A stretch of DNA of 64,000 nt from Candidatus Poribacteria bacterium (GTDB taxonomy: Bacteria > Poribacteria > WGA-4E > WGA-3G), in the NCBI GenBank assembly GCA_963663765.2, contig CAXXUA010000002.1, positions 224,001-288,000 of the forward strand. The letters run 5' to 3'. Both the position numbers and the translations under genes were made by a program. This document shows positions 23,675 to 35,461 of this stretch, one piece after another; position 1 is the stretch's first letter, and each line of letters opens with the position of its first letter. The notes below the pieces were generated by a model that was not told the DNA's origin, did no database searches, and saw only the letters and a list, made by a program, of their open reading frames with translations.

Positions 23675-26600
23675 ATGGCAGAAGCGTCAATTGAAATATA
23701 CGGCGCAAGAGAACATAATCTAAATAATATTGACGTGAGACTCCCCAAAGATAAACTCATTGTCTTCACAGGGGTAAGTGGTTCTGGTAAATCATCACTT
23801 GCAATTGATACACTCTATGCAGAAGGTCAAAGAAGATACATTGAATCACTTTCTGCGTACGCGAGACAGTTCTTAGGACAACTCGGTAAAGCTGAAGTAG
23901 ATAGAATTGTTGGGTTGTCACCTTCCATAGCAATTGATCAAGGTTCAACGGGTCATAATCCGCGTTCAACGGTTGCAACCGTAACCGAAATCTACGATTA
24001 TTTTCGTGTGCTTTTTGCGCGCGCAGGTGAATTCCACTGTCTTGAATGTGGTCAGAAGGTGGGATCGCAAACAATCGCGGATATCGTTTCAAACATCATG
24101 AACCTACCCCAACGTACCCGCATTATGATCTTAGCACCTATCGTCAAAGGCAGACGGGGCGAGTACAGAAAAGAGTTATCAGACGCTCGAAAAATGGGAT
24201 TTATTCGCGCCCGTATTGATGGGGAAATCCACGAAATCAACGCCAACATTGCACTTAATCCAAATCAAAGACACACCATAGACTTGGTAATTGATAGAAT
24301 CATTATTAAGGACGATGTTGAGAGCCGTGTTGCTGAAGCCGTTGAAACGGCTCTCAACATAGGAGACGATATACTCATTGTCAATGTCGTTTCCTCAGAT
24401 AATCCTTCTTCCCGAAAGCAATCAAAAGGTGAAGACTTGCTGTTTAGTCGGCAGTATTCTTGCACGAACTGTCAAGTAAGTTATAATATCCCTGAACCCC
24501 GTCATTTTTCTTACAACAGTCCTTACGGTATGTGTGAGCAGTGCCGAGGATTAGGAGTACAAATGGCAATCTCTCCGAAGTTGATTGTTGTTGATGATAA
24601 CTTACCAGTCATGAAAGGTGCTTTACTATTATGGGAAAAACCCGATTTAAACGAGAAGATGATTTTGCAAACGTTAGCAACACACCTCGGATTCAAACAA
24701 AATACGCCATGGAAGGAACTTACACACGAACAACAACATGCAATATTGTATGGTACGGGTGATACATTACTCACTTTTCGTCAACCAACTGTGAGTAATA
24801 GACGTAAGGGAAAACGTGTACGTGGAAGATTTCAAGGACTGATACCAGCACATGAACATCGATACTTATGGTTAGACGTTAATGAAGAGGGGCATGGAAA
24901 CCCTCATTTACCCGATTACTTTGTCAAGTTGCCGTGTAGAGATTGTGACGGAACCCGTTTGAACAATGTAGTAAAAGCAATTACTATAGCAGGTAAAAAC
25001 ATCACGGAAGTCCTTGATATGTCTATACAGGACTCAGCATCTTTCTTCAATACACTTGAACTACCTGAAAAACAAGCTTTCATAGCTACAGAACTCTTGA
25101 AAGAAATTCGTTCACGTCTCGGTTTCCTACTGGATGTGGGATTAGGTTATCTCACACTGTCCCGTTCCGCACCAACCTTGTCTGGTGGAGAAGCACAAAG
25201 AATACGTCTTGCAAGCCAAGTTGGTGCAGGACTACGGGATGTTACTTATGTCCTTGACGAACCAAGCATCGGTTTGCACCCTCGCGACCACGCAGGACTA
25301 CTAAAGACTTTAATGAACCTACGCAATCAAGGAAATACCGTTATCGTCGTTGAACATGACGAAGCAACTATGTTGGTAGCCGATTGGATAGTAGATTTCG
25401 GTCCCGGTGCAGGAATAAGAGGCGGGGAAATTACCGGTATGGGAACACCTGAGCAAATTATAAATGATAACGACTCACTAACAGCACAATATCTAAGGGG
25501 TGATAAAAAAATTATCCATCCTGAATCACGAAGACCAACAGGCGAAAGATGGGTACAAATCTGCAAAGCACGACAGAATAACCTAAAAGATATTAGTCCT
25601 AAAATTCCACTCGGAACGCTATGTTGTGTAACAGGGGTTAGCGGTTCTGGGAAAAGTTCTCTTATTCATGACATCCTTTACTGTGCACTCGCAAGAGACC
25701 TGATGAGAGCAAAAACTGTACCCGGAGATTACGGTACAATACAAGGTGTTGTTGATGACAAAGACGTTCCTGTCCCTGAAGTCGTGGACAAAATCATCAA
25801 CATTAATATGGCACCTATCGGACGCACACCACGTTCAAATCCTGCTACATATACAAAGGTATTTGATGCTATCCGAGCTTTCTATACAAACCTACCAGAT
25901 TCCAAACTTCGCGGATATAAACCCGGTCGGTTTAGTTTCAATGTACCCGGTGGACGATGTGAAGCATGCACTGGTAATGGTGCTAAAAAAATTGACATGG
26001 GGATACTCGCAGATGTATGGGTGGAGTGTGATGTCTGCAGTGGAAAAAGATATAACAATGAAACACTTAATATCAAATTTAAAGGGAAAAGTATTTCTGA
26101 TGTCTTACAAATGGACATTGCAACCGCTCTTGAGCATTTCGCAGACATACCCAAAATTGCAAGAGGCTTACAACTGCTTCACGATGTGGGTTTAGATTAC
26201 ATAAAACTTGGACAACCGGCACCAACCCTTTCTGGTGGGGAAGCACAACGAATTAAACTCTCAAAGGAACTTTCAAAAAGAAGTACCGGTAAAACTCTTT
26301 ATATCCTTGATGAACCTACAACAGGTTTGCACTTTGAAGATGTCAATAAGTTGTTGTCTATTCTGCACAGATTAGTTGATGAAGGCAACACAGTCGTCGT
26401 GGTTGAACACAACCTTGAAGTAATCAATTCTGCAGATTATCTGATCGATTTAGGACCAGAAGGCGGTATGGAAGGCGGAGAAATTGTAGTTGTCGGCACT
26501 CCTGAAGAAGTTATGAATATACCTGAGTCTTATACAGGACAAGCATTGCGTGGAGAATTCGATCTCTGGAAAAACATTGATAAAAAATCCACCATTGCTG

Positions 26601-29395
26601 AAAATGGCGGCATACCCAAAAACATCCTTGAGGAAACTATTTTCAATGACACTAAGACTATTTCGGTTCAAGGAGCAGAAGAAAATAATCTAAAAAATAT
26701 TGACATAGACATACCCCACCAAAGGTTAACCGCATTGACTGGTGTTAGTGGATCAGGTAAGACCTCACTCGCACTTGATACAATATATGCGGAAGGACAA
26801 CGCAGGTATATTGAGACACTCAGCACTTATGCACGTCAATTTATCGGAAGCATGGAGAAACCGAAAGTTTCAAAAATAGAAGGACTTTCACCAGCAATAG
26901 CAATCACACACTCAAGTCCAAGCCAAAACCCGCGTTCCACTGTCGCTACAATAACAGAAATACATGACGGTCTCCGTACACTATATGCCCGATGGGGACA
27001 ACCACACTGTCCAGATTGCAATGTTGAAGTCCGACCACAAACAGCGCAACAGATAGTTGAATACGTCTTTAGTCTCATGAAGAATAAACGGGTTGATGTG
27101 ATGGCACCGCTTACAAACTTCAAATCTTTTGAAGGTAATGCTGAGGTATTAATAGGCGCAGAACGTACTCCCGGACTAAAAGGTAACGAAGATTATGCAG
27201 ACGCTTTTCGTAGGTTACAAAGAATAGGTTTCGCAAGGGTACAAATTGATGGAGAGATCTTTAGACTTGATGAAACGCCAGAAATCCATAAACGTCGCAG
27301 GCACGAAGTTTTTCTCGTAATTGACCGCATTCAACTCAACGTTGATGAAAAAAGTAGACTCACAGAAGCAGTAGAATTAGCTCTGATTGAAAGTGAAGGA
27401 TTTGTTATTTTAGAGGAAAAAATAGATAAAGAAATACCTAATAGAGTTTTCTTCAGTGAACACGCAATGTGTTCAAACTGTGGACGCAACTTCCCACAAC
27501 TTACACCCAGACATTTCTCCTTTAACAATAAATTAGGAGCATGCAGTTCCTGTGATGGTATTGGAAGATCCTCTATAGATCAACAAAACACTTGTCAAAG
27601 ATGTAATGGAACACGATTAGATGAATTTCCACGCAACGTCCAATTCTCTGACAAAACAATCGCAGAACTTATGGCAATTTCAATATCTAAGACAATAGAA
27701 TTCTTTGGCACACGAATAAATACAATTGAGAAGCATCTCACGACAGCCGCTGGTTCAAAGGAAGCAAAAGCAGCAATGGAACAAGTCCGAGACGTATCTA
27801 CATCAAGAGCAACACATCCAAAACTTCACTCCCATACTTCACCCGAATTTGAAGCACAACTGTTACGTCAATTACAAATCCGCCTAAAATTCTTAGAAAA
27901 TATCGGACTCGGATACCTCGGTTTAGACCGACCCGCACCAACACTTTCTGGGGGAGAAATTAGAAGAATTCGACTCGCAAGTCAACTCGGAACTGGTCTA
28001 ACTGGTGTAACATACATACTTGACGAACCCAGTATCGGATTACACCCACGCGACCAAGAACAACTGATCCTCGCAATGAAGGATTTGCGCGATATAGGAA
28101 ATAGTGTACTCGTCGTTGAACACGATAAGGATACAATTCTATCAGCAGACCATATCATTGATTTCGGACCAAAAGCAGGAAAACAGGGTGGTGAAATAAT
28201 CGCTACCGGTACACCTGAAACCTTCACTGAATCACAACCTATTCCAATTCCTAATTCTAAAAAAACAAACAGCAACTCTGATAAGACAAAGACAAAAGCA
28301 TCTGAAAAGGGATTAACACAAGCTTATCTTTCCAATGAATTGCAAATTCCTGTACCTGCAGTCCGGCGAAAAGGTTCTGGAAAATGGTTGAAACTTTTCG
28401 GAGCAAAAACAAACAATCTAAAAGACATTGATATAGAAATCCCTTACGGAACGTTTACTTGTGTAACTGGTGTTTCAGGATGTGGAAAAAGTTCACTGAT
28501 TGAAGGTACACTCCGACCCGCACTGGAAGACAAACGCTCAATTAGAAAAGGAAACCAAAGTTCAACCAATACTTTTGGGACTCCATTGTATGATAAAATC
28601 CAAGGAATAACGCCAATTGAACGAATGATACACATAGACCAAAAACCTATAGGTGAAACACCACGGTCTAACCCAGCAACTTACACCGAACTATTTACCA
28701 AAATCCGTGAAATGTTTGCTGAATTACCTGATGCAAAACGTCGTGGATTTAACAGAGGAAGGTTTAGTTTCAATCTATCTTATGGGCAGTGTGAAGAGTG
28801 TGACGGACACCGTTACAATCGCATAGAGATGCATTTCTTACCAGATGTATGGATACCGTGCGAAAACTGCAACAGCACAGGATACAACGCTGAAACGCTT
28901 GAAGTAAGGTACAAAGGTAAGAATATCGCAGAAGTTCTACAAATGACGGTACAAGAAGCTCTTGACCTATTTAGTAATATTGCAAGAATAAAACGACCAC
29001 TTCAAACATTAGCAGATGTCGGTTTAGACTATATTCAATTAGGACAAGCAGCCACTACACTCTCCGGTGGAGAAGCACAACGCGTCAAACTCGCAAAAGA
29101 ATTAGCACGTCGTCAAACAGGTACCACGCTCTATATCATGGATGAACCAACAACGGGTTTGCATTTTGATGACGTTCAAAAGCTGCTCAACGTACTCAAC
29201 AAACTTGTTGATGCAGGCAACACGATTGTTGCTATAGAACACAATCTGGATGTTATCAAATCTGCTGATTGGCTAATAGATTTGGGACCAGAAGGAAGTG
29301 ACGCCGGTGGTTATATTGTTGCAATGGGTACTCCTGAAGAAGTTGCAGAGAACAAAGAATCACACACCGCACGTTTCCTCAGTAAGATATTATAG
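23675..29395 (+). CDS. uvrA: Double-length UvrA (two fused UvrA units, four ABC nucleotide-binding sites)
   Basis: Four Walker A motifs (GVSGSGKSS/GVSGSGKTS/GVSGCGKSS), four LSGGE signatures, repeated AEGQRRYIE and RSNPATY; 1906 aa. Confidence 0.95.
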   Translation: MAEASIEIYGAREHNLNNIDVRLPKDKLIVFTGVSGSGKSSLAIDTLYAEGQRRYIESLSAYARQFLGQLGKAEVDRIVGLSPSIAIDQGSTGHNPRSTVATVTEIYDYFRVLFARAGEFHCLECGQKVGSQTIADIVSNIMNLPQRTRIMILAPIVKGRRGEYRKELSDARKMGFIRARIDGEIHEINANIALNPNQRHTIDLVIDRIIIKDDVESRVAEAVETALNIGDDILIVNVVSSDNPSSRKQSKGEDLLFSRQYSCTNCQVSYNIPEPRHFSYNSPYGMCEQCRGLGVQMAISPKLIVVDDNLPVMKGALLLWEKPDLNEKMILQTLATHLGFKQNTPWKELTHEQQHAILYGTGDTLLTFRQPTVSNRRKGKRVRGRFQGLIPAHEHRYLWLDVNEEGHGNPHLPDYFVKLPCRDCDGTRLNNVVKAITIAGKNITEVLDMSIQDSASFFNTLELPEKQAFIATELLKEIRSRLGFLLDVGLGYLTLSRSAPTLSGGEAQRIRLASQVGAGLRDVTYVLDEPSIGLHPRDHAGLLKTLMNLRNQGNTVIVVEHDEATMLVADWIVDFGPGAGIRGGEITGMGTPEQIINDNDSLTAQYLRGDKKIIHPESRRPTGERWVQICKARQNNLKDISPKIPLGTLCCVTGVSGSGKSSLIHDILYCALARDLMRAKTVPGDYGTIQGVVDDKDVPVPEVVDKIININMAPIGRTPRSNPATYTKVFDAIRAFYTNLPDSKLRGYKPGRFSFNVPGGRCEACTGNGAKKIDMGILADVWVECDVCSGKRYNNETLNIKFKGKSISDVLQMDIATALEHFADIPKIARGLQLLHDVGLDYIKLGQPAPTLSGGEAQRIKLSKELSKRSTGKTLYILDEPTTGLHFEDVNKLLSILHRLVDEGNTVVVVEHNLEVINSADYLIDLGPEGGMEGGEIVVVGTPEEVMNIPESYTGQALRGEFDLWKNIDKKSTIAENGGIPKNILEETIFNDTKTISVQGAEENNLKNIDIDIPHQRLTALTGVSGSGKTSLALDTIYAEGQRRYIETLSTYARQFIGSMEKPKVSKIEGLSPAIAITHSSPSQNPRSTVATITEIHDGLRTLYARWGQPHCPDCNVEVRPQTAQQIVEYVFSLMKNKRVDVMAPLTNFKSFEGNAEVLIGAERTPGLKGNEDYADAFRRLQRIGFARVQIDGEIFRLDETPEIHKRRRHEVFLVIDRIQLNVDEKSRLTEAVELALIESEGFVILEEKIDKEIPNRVFFSEHAMCSNCGRNFPQLTPRHFSFNNKLGACSSCDGIGRSSIDQQNTCQRCNGTRLDEFPRNVQFSDKTIAELMAISISKTIEFFGTRINTIEKHLTTAAGSKEAKAAMEQVRDVSTSRATHPKLHSHTSPEFEAQLLRQLQIRLKFLENIGLGYLGLDRPAPTLSGGEIRRIRLASQLGTGLTGVTYILDEPSIGLHPRDQEQLILAMKDLRDIGNSVLVVEHDKDTILSADHIIDFGPKAGKQGGEIIATGTPETFTESQPIPIPNSKKTNSNSDKTKTKASEKGLTQAYLSNELQIPVPAVRRKGSGKWLKLFGAKTNNLKDIDIEIPYGTFTCVTGVSGCGKSSLIEGTLRPALEDKRSIRKGNQSSTNTFGTPLYDKIQGITPIERMIHIDQKPIGETPRSNPATYTELFTKIREMFAELPDAKRRGFNRGRFSFNLSYGQCEECDGHRYNRIEMHFLPDVWIPCENCNSTGYNAETLEVRYKGKNIAEVLQMTVQEALDLFSNIARIKRPLQTLADVGLDYIQLGQAATTLSGGEAQRVKLAKELARRQTGTTLYIMDEPTTGLHFDDVQKLLNVLNKLVDAGNTIVAIEHNLDVIKSADWLIDLGPEGSDAGGYIVAMGTPEEVAENKESHTARFLSKIL

Positions 29396-29854: not shown

Positions 29855-29883
29855 TTGACCTAATTCTTCATTTGTGCTATGAT
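29855..29883 (+). promoter_or_regulatory. Putative sigma70 promoter of the ferredoxin-GGR operon
   Basis: TTGACC-N17-TATGAT with TGn extension. Confidence 0.55.
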
Positions 29884-29922: not shown

Positions 29923-30141
29923 ATGATACATATTAACGAAGAACTTTGCGTTTATTGTGGGGCATGCGTTGCAGTCTGTCCCGAAAATATTATTGACTTG
30001 ATAGACACACATCTGAAAATTGACCAACCCAAGTGCATTGACTGTATGAAATGCGTCAAAGGCTGCCCGATTGGTGTTCTTTCTATGGAACGGAACGGAA
30101 AGATTTATTCTTTCGATTATCCCGAGAGAGGACTTTTCTGA
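29923..30141 (+). CDS. 2x[4Fe-4S] ferredoxin
   Basis: CVYCGACVAVCP and CIDCMKCVKGCP. Confidence 0.92.
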   Translation: MIHINEELCVYCGACVAVCPENIIDLIDTHLKIDQPKCIDCMKCVKGCPIGVLSMERNGKIYSFDYPERGLF

Positions 30142-30168
30142 TAAAGAGTGCTGTAGAGAGAAGTATAG

Positions 30169-31362
30169 ATGCTACATTCAGAGTATGATGTCATTGCTGT
30201 TGGGGCGGGACCAGGTGGTTCTATCGCAGCAAAAGTTGCCGCTGAAAATGGTTTGCGGGTTCTCCTTTTAGAGAAACGGCAAGAAATAGGCGTACCACTC
30301 CGCTGAGCTGAAGGTATTGGCACAGAGGATCTGTGCGAATTTATTCAGCCAGACGCGGCATGGATATCAAATGAGATCCACGGGGCACGTATTTTCTCCC
30401 CTAACGAGACTGCAGTCACAATTCATCAACCAGGCGCAGGTTACGTCTTAGAACGAAAGGTGTTTGATCTCCGTCTTGCGGAGATGGCATCAAACTCGGG
30501 TGCCGAGGTTATGGTAAAGGCACGTGTTACAAATGTCACTTTCTCTGAAGCTGGTGCTGTGAACGGTGTCGTATTCCGACATTCAGGACGCGAATATACG
30601 TGCAAAAGCAAGATAGTTATCGCTGCGGATGGGGTTGAATCGCAAGTTGGACGGTGGGCAGGTATTGATACTACCCACCAACTACGTGATATTGGTGCTT
30701 GTGCCCAGTATCTCATTTCAAACATTGATATTATGCCTGAGTACTGTGATTTTTACTTCGGGCGCGAGGTTGCTCCACTTGGTTATGTTTGGGTTTTTCC
30801 AAAAGGGAAAGACATCGCAAACGTTGGGGTCGGCGTTAGGGCAAATATTTCAGGAAAAGACAGCAAACTTGCTATAGACTACCTAAACGCATTTGTCAAA
30901 CGGAAGTTCCCGGAGGGTAAAGTTTTAGGATTAGTGTGCGGTGCGGTTCCTGTCGGACAAGGTTTGCCGCGGATTGTCGGGGATGGCATTCTGCTTGTTG
31001 GCGACGCAGCACATCACAGCGATCCAGTCTCTGGAGGAGGTATCCCTAACGCAATGTATTCTGGGAAATTTGCAGCGGAAGCAGCGGTCAAGGCTATACA
31101 CATCGGTGATGTCTCACGAGATATTCTCAGCGCATATTCAAAACGTTGGGACCGCGAAATCGGTAAACACTTTAAGCATATCTGTCGCATCCGCGATGGA
31201 GTTTTAAAATTCAATGACGATACACTTGATAGATATGCAGAACTACTTTCTCAGATACATGGTGAACCGTTAACGTTGGCAAAGATCTTCCAAACAGTAC
31301 TTAAAAATCAACCAAGTTTGCTTCTTGAACTCCGACACCTCATTTTAGCTGGATGGGTTTAG
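30169..31362 (+). CDS. Geranylgeranyl reductase / DGGGPL reductase-family flavoprotein, 397 aa, with in-frame TGA (codon 46) probably read as selenocysteine
   Basis: [21 protein letters not shown]...[20 protein letters not shown] continues in frame into ORF 30460..31362 ([31 protein letters not shown]). Confidence 0.88.
30307..30349 (+). promoter_or_regulatory. Candidate bacterial SECIS stem-loop
   Basis: GCTGAA(30307-12)/TTCAGC(30344-49) basal stem; GCACAGA(30320-26)/TCTGTGC(30330-36) apical stem; GGA loop starting 21 nt after the TGA. Confidence 0.75.
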
Positions 31363-32773: not shown

Positions 32774-35461
32774 ATGCCTTTACCTCCTGATTTTCCTGAA
32801 TCTCCACATGCGATTATTGACCCTTCAGTTCGTTGGACACCAGATGCTACCCAATTGTCCTTATTGGGTAGTGCCATGTTACTCCCTCCACTTGTTCAAA
32901 AACTACGGGAGGCGGTTAAGACATGGCGTAACGACAACTACAAAGGTGCCTCGGAAACAAGTAAAGCACTGCTCAATTGGTGGTTCAAGACACCACACCT
33001 GCAAGAACAGTCTGATGGGACAACATCAGAATTTCAATATTACTTTGCCCAACGTGAAGCACTTGAAACTATTGTTTACCTATATGATGTCATCAAGGTA
33101 AAGGACAAGTACGATTTGATGAGCTTTGACAGTTCAGGTTTTGTTTCGGCAGGAATGTTTGACGAAGATTGGAAACGGTTTGTCATAAAAATGGCAACAG
33201 GCACAGGCAAAACAAAGGTGATGAGTCTTGCTATCGCTTGGAGTTTCTTCCACAAGCTGTATGAATCCGACTCCGATCTCTCCCGCAATTTCCTTGTCAT
33301 CGCTCCTAATATCATTGTACTTGACCGTCTTTATAAAGATTTTAAAGGATTAGACATTTTTTTTCAAGACCCAGTACTGCCAAATAACGGTTTTGAAGGT
33401 CATGATTGGCGAAACGATTTTCAACTCACCTTGCATGTGCAGGACGAAGTGCGTACTATCCGATCTACTGGGAACATCTTTCTCACTAATATTCACCGTG
33501 TTTATTCCAGCGACCAAACCCCGCCTTCTCCCGACGATGAGGATAGTAAAGATTATTACTTGGGTGAAAAACCGACTGGAGCAACCACAGATTCAAAAGT
33601 AGACCTCGGAGATATAGTCCGTGATATTGACGAATTGATGGTACTTAACGATGAAGCACATCATATCCATGATCCTCGAATGGCATGGTTCAAGTCAATC
33701 GAGGATATTCATAATCGGCTTGTGCAGAAAGACAGTGAGTTATCATTACAGCTTGACGTAACTGCAACCCCAAAGCATAATAACGGTGCAATCTTTGTTC
33801 AAACTGTAGCAGATTACCCACTTGTAGAGGCTATTTCGCAAGATGTCGTTAAACATCCTATTCTTCCAAATGATGAAAGCAGAAAGAAACTTGAAGAGAA
33901 GCAGAGTGTGAAGTTTACAGAGAGATACGCGGACTATCTACACCTCGGTGTGGTTGAGTGGCGAAAAGCGTCCGAAAGACACGAAAAATTGGGTAAGAAA
34001 GCCATTCTGTTTGTGATGACCGATGATACCAAAAACTGTGATGAGGTAGCAACTTATCTTGAAAACCGTTACCAAGACTTAAGAGATGCTGTGCTGGTGA
34101 TTCATACAAAGAATAATGGTGAAATCTCTGAGGCGACATCTGGTAAGAAAAAGGAGGAACTTGAGGAACTCCGAAAGCAAGCGAATGAGATCGATTTAGC
34201 GATAGACAAAAACCCATATAAGGCAATTGTCTCCGTTTTAATGCTCAAAGAGGGGTGGGATGTAAAGAACGTTACCACAATTGTAGGGCTTCGCGCTTAT
34301 ACCGCAGCGAGTAATATTTTACCAGAACAGACGCTTGGACGTGGACTTAGACGAATGTATAACAATTCAGTGGATGAGTCTGTGAGTGTCATCGGCACTG
34401 AAGTCTTCATGGAATTTGTTGAAAAGATCCAAGAGGAAGGAGTTGAATTAGAACGTAAAGAAATGGGAGAAGGCACAGAACCCATAGCACCCCTTGTAAT
34501 TGAGGTTGACAAGGAAAATGTGGACAAAGACATTGGCGCGCTTGATATTGATATACCGATATTGACACGACGCGTCTATCGTGAATATAAGCATCTTGCA
34601 CACTTAGATGTTAACAGCCTTGACTTCAAACCTATATTGTATTTGACGTTTGGTGTAGATCAGTTACGAGAGATTGAATTCCATTATATGACAACAAGTG
34701 AGGTTGCACACACAACTATTTTGGAAAGTCCGGGGGCAGAAGACTACCGAAACGCTCTCGGTTATTTTGCACAAACTCTTATGAAGGAACTCCGACTCGT
34801 CGGCGGTTATGATGTACTTTATGCTAAGGTAAAAGAATTTGTTCAGCATTATCTCTTTGGTGAAACGGTGGCATTAGACGATCCCATCACCATAAAAAAT
34901 CTCGCTGAACTCCGCGCCACAAAAACAATTATTGAAACATTCAAACGTGCAATAAATGACCTTACAGTCCAGGACAAAGGAAATGCTAATCTAAGCGAAA
35001 CCACCAAAATTAGCAGCACAAGACCTTTTATGGTGAAAGACCAAGAACACTTAGTACCGAAAAAATCAGTGTTCAACATTATCACTGGCGATAGTCATTT
35101 GGAATTGGAATTTGCCAAATTTCTGGAGGAGTGCCCGGACGTTGTATCCTATACAAAAAACTATTATGGGGTGCAGTTTAAACTTGATTATGTGAATGCC
35201 GATGGTGATATTTCTAACTACTATCCCGATTTTATCGTTAAACTGATGGATGGAAGTGTGATTATCGTTGAAACTAAGGGATTAGAAGACTTAGACGTAC
35301 CGCTCAAGATGCAACGCCTGTCGCAATGGTGCAAGGATGTTAACAATATCTCAGAAGATGTGACTCATGACTTTGTTTATGTTGATGAGGAGAGTTTCAG
35401 GGTATATCAACCGACAACATTTCAGCAACTGCTTGATGGTTTTACCGAATACAAACCGTAG
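32774..35461 (+). CDS. res: Type III restriction enzyme Res subunit
   Basis: YFAQREA, KMATGTGKT, NDEAHH, TATP, LKEGWD, EQTLGRGLR; C-terminal YYPDF...ETKG PD-(D/E)xK nuclease. Confidence 0.92.
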   Translation: MPLPPDFPESPHAIIDPSVRWTPDATQLSLLGSAMLLPPLVQKLREAVKTWRNDNYKGASETSKALLNWWFKTPHLQEQSDGTTSEFQYYFAQREALETIVYLYDVIKVKDKYDLMSFDSSGFVSAGMFDEDWKRFVIKMATGTGKTKVMSLAIAWSFFHKLYESDSDLSRNFLVIAPNIIVLDRLYKDFKGLDIFFQDPVLPNNGFEGHDWRNDFQLTLHVQDEVRTIRSTGNIFLTNIHRVYSSDQTPPSPDDEDSKDYYLGEKPTGATTDSKVDLGDIVRDIDELMVLNDEAHHIHDPRMAWFKSIEDIHNRLVQKDSELSLQLDVTATPKHNNGAIFVQTVADYPLVEAISQDVVKHPILPNDESRKKLEEKQSVKFTERYADYLHLGVVEWRKASERHEKLGKKAILFVMTDDTKNCDEVATYLENRYQDLRDAVLVIHTKNNGEISEATSGKKKEELEELRKQANEIDLAIDKNPYKAIVSVLMLKEGWDVKNVTTIVGLRAYTAASNILPEQTLGRGLRRMYNNSVDESVSVIGTEVFMEFVEKIQEEGVELERKEMGEGTEPIAPLVIEVDKENVDKDIGALDIDIPILTRRVYREYKHLAHLDVNSLDFKPILYLTFGVDQLREIEFHYMTTSEVAHTTILESPGAEDYRNALGYFAQTLMKELRLVGGYDVLYAKVKEFVQHYLFGETVALDDPITIKNLAELRATKTIIETFKRAINDLTVQDKGNANLSETTKISSTRPFMVKDQEHLVPKKSVFNIITGDSHLELEFAKFLEECPDVVSYTKNYYGVQFKLDYVNADGDISNYYPDFIVKLMDGSVIIVETKGLEDLDVPLKMQRLSQWCKDVNNISEDVTHDFVYVDEESFRVYQPTTFQQLLDGFTEYKP

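Follow-up and report, generated by a model that had tools for sequence, protein, structure and literature searches.

A probable selenocysteine variant of geranylgeranyl reductase, encoded beside a ferredoxin, in one order of Poribacteria

Results

The locus and the protein family of the read-through product

In this study, we analyzed a stretch of 64,000 nucleotides (hereafter the window) from a Candidatus Poribacteria bacterium (contig CAXXUA010000002.1, positions 224,001 to 288,000), on the forward strand of which lies a gene of the geranylgeranyl reductase (GGR) family at 30169..31362. The gene starts at ATG 30169 and runs for 397 sense codons to a TAG at 31360-31362; its lone in-frame stop is a TGA at codon 46 (30304..30306), in the context EIGVPLR-TGA-AEGIG, which we read as probable selenocysteine (Sec). 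A Sec-containing GGR had been proposed at this position in an earlier note made from the DNA letters, and its description of the gene was reproduced: the frame is intact from ATG 30169, the GAGPGG motif (the GxGxxG motif of the flavin adenine dinucleotide (FAD)-binding fold) occupies residues 12-17 (30202..30219), upstream of the TGA, and no further lesion occurs over the 397 codons. A conventional listing of open reading frames (ORFs) contains only a 300-aa piece of the gene that begins at GTG 30460. Immediately 5' of the GGR gene is a gene for a ferredoxin of 72 aa of the 2x[4Fe-4S] type (29923..30141, forward strand), which matches Pfam Fer4 families, carries two CxxCxxCxxxCP motifs (29947-29982 and 30034-30069) and is the proposed electron donor of the reductase. 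The TGA stop codon of the ferredoxin gene is directly followed by an in-frame TAA (tandem stops, 30139-30144), and there are 27 nt to the GGR start. The sequencing runs that contain the stretch include sponge metagenomes.

The protein obtained by reading through the TGA (P0001) scored 237.9 bits against TIGR02032 (cut-off 158.8) and 90.8 against PF22578 GGR_cat (cut-off 27), and FAD_binding_3 also matched. Its best solved relative is 3oz2_A (E 2.1e-81, residues 5-392), the digeranylgeranylglycerophospholipid (DGGGPL) reductase of Thermoplasma acidophilum. In addition to GAGPGG, all expected motifs are present: RKVFD (RxxFD) at residues 96-100, YVWVFP (YxWxFP) at residues 206-211 in the GGR catalytic domain (30784..30801), and the flavin/substrate motifs LxGD (LVGDAA, residues 276-281) and GGG (SGGG, residues 288-291), which together span 30994..31041. 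RxxFD, YxWxFP, LxGD and GGG are named as GGR motifs in the available text of PMC6309074 and PMC10821996. The gene product therefore appears from its sequence to be an FAD enzyme of the GGR family, for which reduction of polyprenyl C=C bonds is predicted.

Alignment of P0001 to 3oz2, 4opl and 3atq showed that the TGA column corresponds to the Cys of PVRCGEG in 3oz2, the match that had been expected for archaeal DGGGPL reductases, and to the Cys of the Sulfolobus GGR chains. The column of Cys47 of the Sulfolobus enzyme, a residue behind the isoalloxazine ring, is consequently TGA here and Cys in the Cys-form relatives. The earlier note held that this Cys lies beside the FAD and is catalytically important, and both points are stated in the available text of PMC10821996 and PMC6309074, according to which archaeal GGRs conserve the residue, the Sulfolobus acidocaldarius enzyme cannot do without it, and its place is immediately behind the isoalloxazine ring; that it takes part in electron transfer or tunes the flavin is still termed speculative there.

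Recurrence of the TGA and its alternation with cysteine

A GGR match was found in 56 of the 176 genomes of our Poribacteria set, in which Sec forms occur in four families (f1-f4) of one order. All 39 near-full-length orthologues from f1-f4 (66-82% identity) have one TGA, so that the codon is not peculiar to the source strain; one of the 39, in genome G134, has a TAG besides the TGA. Full-length matches in other orders (48-64% identity) had zero in-frame stops. At the codon level, for which 35 orthologues were extracted together with nine homologues from other orders, codon 46 is TGA in 35/35 orthologues, in the context P[VLI]R-U-AE[GA], and the same column is TGT or TGC at all nine loci of other orders. 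Cys also occupies this column in 18/18 full-length database proteins, and the recurrent alternation between TGA and Cys that a Sec codon had led us to look for in related genomes is thus present.

The phylogeny of 62 rows, a quick maximum-likelihood search with the Shimodaira-Hasegawa-like approximate likelihood ratio test (SH-aLRT) as its sole support, grouped the Sec forms into one clade (SH-aLRT 99) nested among the Cys forms, and the branching of that clade mirrors the family taxonomy. This topology is compatible with one replacement of Cys by Sec in the order's ancestor, after which vertical descent and losses would have followed.

The distribution was scanned with a degenerate DNA pattern based on the flanks E[KR]RxExGxPxR-TGA-[AG]E[GA], which matched 35 stretches in a collection of one genome for each of 185,579 species (33 titled Poribacteria and two titled 'uncultured bacterium') and 27 stretches in a metagenome collection. 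Of these 62 loci all but L079 were parsed, and every one of the 61 is a Poribacteria-type Sec-GGR with the hairpin described below; two of them (L091 and L104) have a further early stop. Since the pattern fixes the flanks, it misses Sec-GGRs with other flanks, and the scan is not proof of their absence outside Poribacteria.

Selenocysteine machinery and a SECIS-like hairpin

All four genes of the Sec machinery, whose presence the proposal presupposes, were identified in the source genome (6.35 Mb, 15 contigs, 97.8% complete) with scores over the curated cut-offs: selA (620.8 bits), selB (361.6), the tRNA-Sec gene selC (78.5), which directly follows selB, and selD (367.6). The selD gene lies on the minus strand ~2.5 kb before the first base of the window (G000:C2:220603-221529, locus L010) and is itself of the Sec type: its frame contains a TGA, in KCAG-U-ASK, and a 10-bp hairpin comes after it, which makes the gene an internal positive control for Sec decoding. 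Across the phylum, selA was found in 163/176 genomes and in 38 of the 39 genomes with a Sec-form GGR, the exception (G066) being an assembly of 730 contigs. The genome G016, whose GGR copy is frameshifted, had no selA match at 95% completeness. Sec use in the phylum is known: the available text of PMC13582414 lists Poribacteria as one of the phyla whose group 4 [NiFe] hydrogenases include Sec variants.

Downstream of the TGA is a hairpin that resembles a selenocysteine insertion sequence (SECIS) (30320..30336, forward strand), with a 7-bp stem formed by 30320-30326 and 30330-30336 around the loop GGA (30327-30329). Its helix begins 13 nt 3' of the TGA, its 3-nt loop begins 20 nt after the UGA, and the first base of the loop is an invariant G. 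A G in the apical loop is expected of a bacterial SECIS, and the bSECISearch consensus reportedly has a UGA-to-loop distance of about 16-37 nt. In an alignment of 16 orthologues, 98.2% of the helix cells are paired and compensatory changes occur at three of the seven pairs. The covariation score was 0.410 versus 0.200 in shuffles (0/500 reached 0.410), a control that does not remove kinship among the sequences, and was at most 0.133 in controls in which the pairing partner was slid. Some of the compensatory changes swap the encoded residues jointly, from Thr...Cys to Ala...His or Ala...Arg; it is the RNA pairing rather than the protein that appears to be kept.

All 35 Sec forms have the helix and none of the nine Cys forms does; the mean minimum free energy of the 32-nt window is -10.3 versus -5.4 kcal/mol, respectively. 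In the source genome, a lower helix extends the hairpin (30307-30351) and the 81-nt fold at 30295-30375 has a free energy of -32.7 kcal/mol (z -4.44). A gathering-threshold Rfam scan of the whole window returned zero family matches, and thus no catalogued SECIS model. On these features the hairpin is a putative SECIS-like element that would direct Sec insertion. A simple terminator scan also flags it (30320-30345, forward strand), and that flag is owed to the conserved GAATTTATT (codons Glu-Phe-Ile, U-rich) right after the hairpin. The terminator reading was set aside, as the frame around the hairpin is conserved and selection acts on both sides of it, and we read the structure as a SECIS.

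Selection, independent sequence data and annotation

The ratio of nonsynonymous to synonymous substitution rates (dN/dS), computed on 31 of the 35 Sec orthologues, is 0.054 upstream of the TGA (codons 2-45) and 0.116 downstream of it (codons 47-397); the proportion of synonymous differences (pS) is about 0.72, so that synonymous sites are near saturation. Both sides of the TGA are therefore under strong purifying selection, and the source gene does not have the pseudogene-like decay that would have spoken for a dead gene. The 45 codons before the TGA encode the FAD-binding fold, which would have no use as a separate peptide.

Contigs from other sequencing runs read TGA at this codon as well. 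A DNA contig from a different sponge metagenome (X6) spans it without difference, as do contigs from RNA libraries (X8 and X9), whose coverage of the gene is partial (15/30 bins). Upstream of the TGA, three variants are found in the X6 and RNA contigs (at 30183, 30252 and 30291), all of which are synonymous third-position changes. The X8 and X9 data were filed under different studies; since their contigs and figures do not differ, the same data were probably filed twice, and we counted them once.

The earlier note also anticipated that automatic gene callers would truncate the gene to an ORF lacking its N-terminus, and this has happened: the sole product of the source gene in the protein collection is one of 292 aa (P0004, 100% identity, 74% coverage) without the FAD-binding N-terminus. 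All homologues of at least 66% identity in that collection are likewise shortened, to 284-346 aa, including those sourced from NCBI.

The probable ferredoxin partner

A ferredoxin ORF lies just 5' of the GGR gene in 11 of the 13 loci inspected; of the other two, L064 has the two proteins fused and L061 has no separate ferredoxin ORF listed. The fused protein P0097 is 58% identical to the ferredoxin over residues 6-55 and 52% identical to the reductase over residues 82-469. Many homologues of 465-480 aa carry Fer4 domains, and an N-terminal ferredoxin-GGR fusion occurs in other Poribacteria, which makes the upstream ferredoxin a likely electron donor in the source genome. A precedent exists in Methanosarcina acetivorans, where a small ferredoxin is encoded beside the GGR, which needs the ferredoxin of its own locus, and is the specific in vivo reductant for saturation of digeranylgeranylglyceryl phosphate (DGGGP), according to the available text of PMC10821996. 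That enzyme, which we compared by its description (Isobe/Ogawa et al. 2014, as cited in the available text of PMC10821996 and PMC7852524), differs in being an archaeal Cys enzyme.

We predicted the complex of a homologous Cys-form pair, that of L059, which gave an ipSAE of 0.93 versus 0.00 for the best control; the mark applied to this score was reached by 51/78 solved complexes and by 2/108 mismatched pairs. At least 98% of contacts are shared between the runs, and the partner has a predicted local distance difference test (pLDDT) value of at least 87. In the predicted interface, both cluster-binding loops of the ferredoxin meet reductase residues 35-37, 42 and 44, beside the Cys (residue 45 in that protein). 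FixC, a flavoprotein that is GGR-like (E 4.7e-15), is paired with the small ferredoxin FixX. For the predicted docking, the solved complex of these two (7koe) may serve as a structural precedent, although FixC is an electron-transfer flavoprotein (ETF)-quinone oxidoreductase rather than a prenyl reductase and only a distant relative. The score of the L059 complex may in part reflect its likeness to 7koe, and we take it as support and not as proof.

Residue 56 varies between Cys, His and Arg across the Sec orthologues, so there is no conserved partner Cys. With no second conserved Cys available to form a selenenylsulfide, the Sec probably acts with the flavin alone, like the Cys in archaeal enzymes. 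In our view the partnership is well supported by gene order, fusions and the modeled complex, and we read the pair as electron donor and reductase, in which the Sec would lie on or beside the path from the iron-sulfur cluster to the FAD.

Ether-lipid genes in the phylum

Three families (f2, f3 and f4) and Cys-form lineages of other orders share a conserved cluster in which the ferredoxin-GGR pair lies between a gene for a UbiA prenyltransferase and one for geranylgeranylglyceryl phosphate (GGGP) synthase (GGGPS), in the order UbiA - ferredoxin - GGR - GGGPS. Loci with genes of this archaeal-type ether-lipid set include the Sec forms L024, L026, L031, L034 and L035 and the Cys forms L059, L064 and L065. 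In NCBIfam, the cluster UbiA matches DGGGP-synthase models best, with 230 and 222 bits that fall short of the respective cut-offs, and the cluster GGGPS exceeds the cut-offs of both TIGR01769 (226.3 bits vs 161.55) and NF003198 (295.7 vs 247). In f1, the pair is the sole part of the cluster that is kept together and lies between UvrA-like and DnaJ-domain genes (the same in three f1 loci inspected); in the source genome the GGGPS (C4:104607-105269) and UbiA (C4:255775-256599) genes are away from the GGR.

Phylum-wide, GGGPS (PF01884) was found in 144 of the 176 genomes and a DGGGP-synthase-like UbiA in 141, compared with the 56 that have a GGR. GGGPS is present in 54 of those 56, the two exceptions being 73% and 64% complete. 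In the genus g6, GGR, GGGPS and UbiA are each found in one of 20 genomes, and G075 is listed with all three. Next to the widespread GGGPS/UbiA pair, the reductase is thus an accessory gene that has often been lost. One in-frame TGA was observed in each of four DGGGP-synthase-like UbiA matches of families f5 and f8 (G045:C81:21002-21820, G055:C657:1187-2032, G052:C7:26347-27192 and G050:C308:138-983), where it may mark the edge of a gene, a lesion or a further Sec codon.

Other features of the window

A promoter-like site, TTGACC-17-TATGAT with TG, is situated at 29855..29883 (forward strand), ~40 nt 5' of the ferredoxin start. It was identified solely by its likeness to the consensus, in a scan that returned 10 such sites versus 4.9 expected in shuffles; we regard it as a candidate promoter for the ferredoxin-GGR pair. 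ARAGORN identified no tRNA in the window. Upstream, at 23675-29395 (forward strand), a gene encodes a protein of 1906 aa, roughly double the normal length of UvrA, in which several ABC ATPase modules are combined with UvrA interaction and DNA-binding domains, and a similar UvrA-like gene ends just 5' of the pair in the three f1 loci inspected. Downstream, at 32774-35461 (forward strand), an 895-aa protein with a ResIII helicase domain is encoded, which scored 273.9 bits against the model of the BPTD_3080 family restriction endonuclease, below its cut-off of 800.

Discussion

Our analyses indicate that this locus very probably harbors a real selenoprotein gene, encoding a Sec variant of the known GGR family. 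Six independent lines of evidence point to Sec at UGA46, namely the Sec machinery of the genome, the recurrence of the TGA, the phylogeny, the hairpin, the selection on both parts of the frame, and the lack of any sign of artefact or of recoding. The inference of a Sec-GGR made in the earlier note is accordingly strengthened, in particular by the alternation with Cys, the covarying hairpin, the machinery and the selection. Several observations weigh on the other side. The RNA evidence consists of contigs from RNA libraries, which can contain DNA, and the hairpin lies within the coding sequence of related genes, so that part of its conservation is at the protein level. In addition, some copies are decaying: that of G134 (L040, L104) has its extra TAG at codon 65, L091 has a stop 43 codons after the TGA, the copy of G016 (L036, L039) is split by a frameshift, and that of G028 (L037, L038) is split and has several stops.

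The mechanism that we propose is as follows. UGA46 would be decoded as Sec by SelB and tRNA-Sec, directed by the SECIS hairpin 13 nt 3' of the UGA, and the Sec would stand in for the essential Cys directly behind the isoalloxazine ring. The upstream 2x[4Fe-4S] ferredoxin would dock beside the Sec loop and pass electrons to the FAD, and the reduced flavin would then saturate polyprenyl C=C bonds. The most likely substrate would be the geranylgeranyl chains of archaeal-type glycerol ether lipids made by GGGPS and the DGGGP-synthase-like UbiA. What Sec would contribute is a guess; possibly it is a more reactive and more oxidation-resistant partner of the flavin in an aerobic sponge symbiont.

The position of the pair between UbiA and GGGPS in the sister families suggests that the substrate is an archaeal-type isoprenoid ether lipid, and saturation of the chains of such lipids is the best-supported role of the enzyme, one that we consider probable for the sister families but hold with less certainty for the source genome. 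We tentatively suggest, as a possibility that we hold with considerable doubt, that in one order of Poribacteria a selenium-dependent, ferredoxin-driven reductase saturates isoprenoid glycerol ether lipids of the archaeal type; it would then be the first selenoenzyme in the biosynthesis of membrane lipids or isoprenoids. Several findings tell against the lipid part of this proposal. Among 111 f1 species, GGGPS and UbiA are each found in 101 and the GGR in 15, unlinked from both. The reductase is missing from most f1 species that keep GGGPS and UbiA and hence is dispensable for the product of those genes, which weakens the substrate assignment in the source genome. P0001 also falls short of the cut-offs of the DGGGPL reductase equivalogs NF041160 (the Thermoplasmatales model; 300.6 vs 780), NF041080 (180 vs 580) and NF041385 (95.7 vs 700); it is consequently filed in the GGR family and not as an equivalog, and the ether-lipid role rests on the gene neighborhood. 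Furthermore, CarS (PF01864) was not found in the 97.8%-complete source genome, and the four PF13685 matches there (41-52 bits) do not permit assignment to a glycerol-1-phosphate (G1P) dehydrogenase.

Potentially, the selenoprotein is real and its substrate is another polyprenyl compound, such as the side chain of menaquinone (as for MenJ), free geranylgeranyl diphosphate (GGPP) or phytyl precursors, or polyprenols. GGRs are promiscuous according to the available text of PMC10821996, the models of MenJ (87.8 bits) and BchP/ChlP (146.3 bits) also match P0001, and both the missed equivalog cut-offs and the unlinked, mostly absent GGR of f1 also speak for this reading. Nevertheless, the conserved cluster of f2-f4 and of the Cys-form lineages, the T. 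acidophilum DGGGPL reductase as the closest solved relative, the presence of GGGPS in 54 of the 56 genomes with a GGR, and the co-occurrence of the trio in G075 of genus g6 all favor an ether lipid, and we consider a different substrate the less likely alternative.

The remaining explanations concern the codon itself. Near-cognate decoding or an alternative code could make UGA a codon for a standard amino acid, whether Cys, Trp or Gly, and Cys would indeed work at codon 46. However, TGA ends 10 of the 32 long open frames of the window, including that of the adjacent ferredoxin, and is therefore not a general sense codon; the hairpin is at a SelB-type distance and is confined to the TGA forms; tRNA-Sec adjoins selB; and selA is present in all but one of the 39 TGA-form genomes whereas G016, a well-assembled genome with a broken copy, has no selA match. 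Decoding as a standard amino acid is thus very improbable. That the TGA is a true stop, either in a pseudogene or in a split gene that yields a 45-aa peptide and a truncated reductase of ~292-351 aa, would agree with the products of the gene callers, with TGA being a normal stop codon in the genome and with the few relatives that are visibly decaying. It would leave unexplained why the TGA is at the same codon in 35/35 orthologues over four families whose synonymous sites are near saturation, why dN/dS is 0.054 over the 44 upstream codons of an indispensable FAD-binding fold, and why a codon at the catalytic-Cys column is accompanied by a covarying hairpin and full Sec machinery, and we regard it as scarcely credible. 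An error of sequencing or assembly in the source genome can be dismissed, given the same codon in 35 genome and 27 metagenome stretches and in the contigs of other runs.

The T. acidophilum DGGGPL reductase shares its FAD-binding, catalytic and C-terminal domains as well as its motifs with the Poribacteria enzyme, but it is an archaeal Cys enzyme, whereas the Poribacteria enzyme is bacterial and of the Sec type and is far below the NF041160 cut-off; in addition, the archaeal enzyme is reported in the available text of PMC10821996 to use NADP(H), whereas the Poribacteria gene has a ferredoxin alongside. FAD selenoproteins of the pyridine-nucleotide disulfide oxidoreductase type similarly have Sec at a flavin active site in place of a redox Cys. 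They belong, however, to other folds and families with sulfur chemistry, while GGR reduces unactivated C=C bonds and has no conserved partner Cys. In terms of lipid genes, the closest bacterial parallel that we compared is Candidatus Cloacimonetes, a different phylum, for which the available text of PMC7852524 reports GGGP synthase, DGGGP synthase and Euryarchaeota-like GGRs, with CarS not detected, a pattern that recurs in the source genome; the word 'Poribacteria' has 0 occurrences in the main text of that paper, and its available text makes no mention of Sec, although no search aimed at selenocysteine was made there. No link between Poribacteria and GGGPS or archaeal-type lipids was found in the literature that we searched, including the available text of PMC7203096, which mentions both, unlinked.

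Sec-GGR has apparently not yet been catalogued as a selenoprotein family. An inventory of May 2026 lists 119 prokaryotic selenoprotein families and new computational families turn up regularly (PMC13188914, in its available part); Table 1 of that inventory, which holds the 119 families, has no GGR, no prenyl reductase and no lipid-biosynthesis enzyme, and the sole FAD enzymes in it are of the CoA-disulfide-reductase type and type III sulfide:quinone reductase. Neither the BSepDB paper nor the deep-Sep paper contains the term 'geranylgeranyl' in its main text (0 occurrences), and NCBIfam release 20.0 has no selenoprotein-specific model for P0001, the top matches being generic GGR models. A check of the selenoprotein catalogues for a prior description, as had been advised, therefore revealed none in Table 1 of PMC13188914 or among the NCBIfam models. 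Searches for selenoprotein or selenocysteine together with GGR returned nothing relevant in the openly searchable literature; supplements or subscription papers could hold a prior mention.

Several consequences follow for the family and for its host. Sec-GGR adds to the selenoproteins a family of unusual chemistry, as it would act on unactivated lipid C=C bonds rather than in the thiol/redox exchange of most known families. Annotation pipelines lose its FAD-binding domain in dozens of genomes, and the gene is mis-annotated wherever it is found. The Poribacteria represent a large bacterial reservoir of archaeal-type lipid genes, which we did not find described in the literature searched. A direct handle on the speculative role of the GGR Cys comes from its natural replacement by Sec and from the ferredoxin, which is predicted to dock beside the same loop. 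If our proposal is correct, the swap would imply that the flavin-adjacent Cys is directly chemical in catalysis, as an electron relay or in a flavin adduct, and not merely structural, and the supply of selenium would be tied to membrane composition in sponge symbionts that straddle the divide between bacterial and archaeal lipids.

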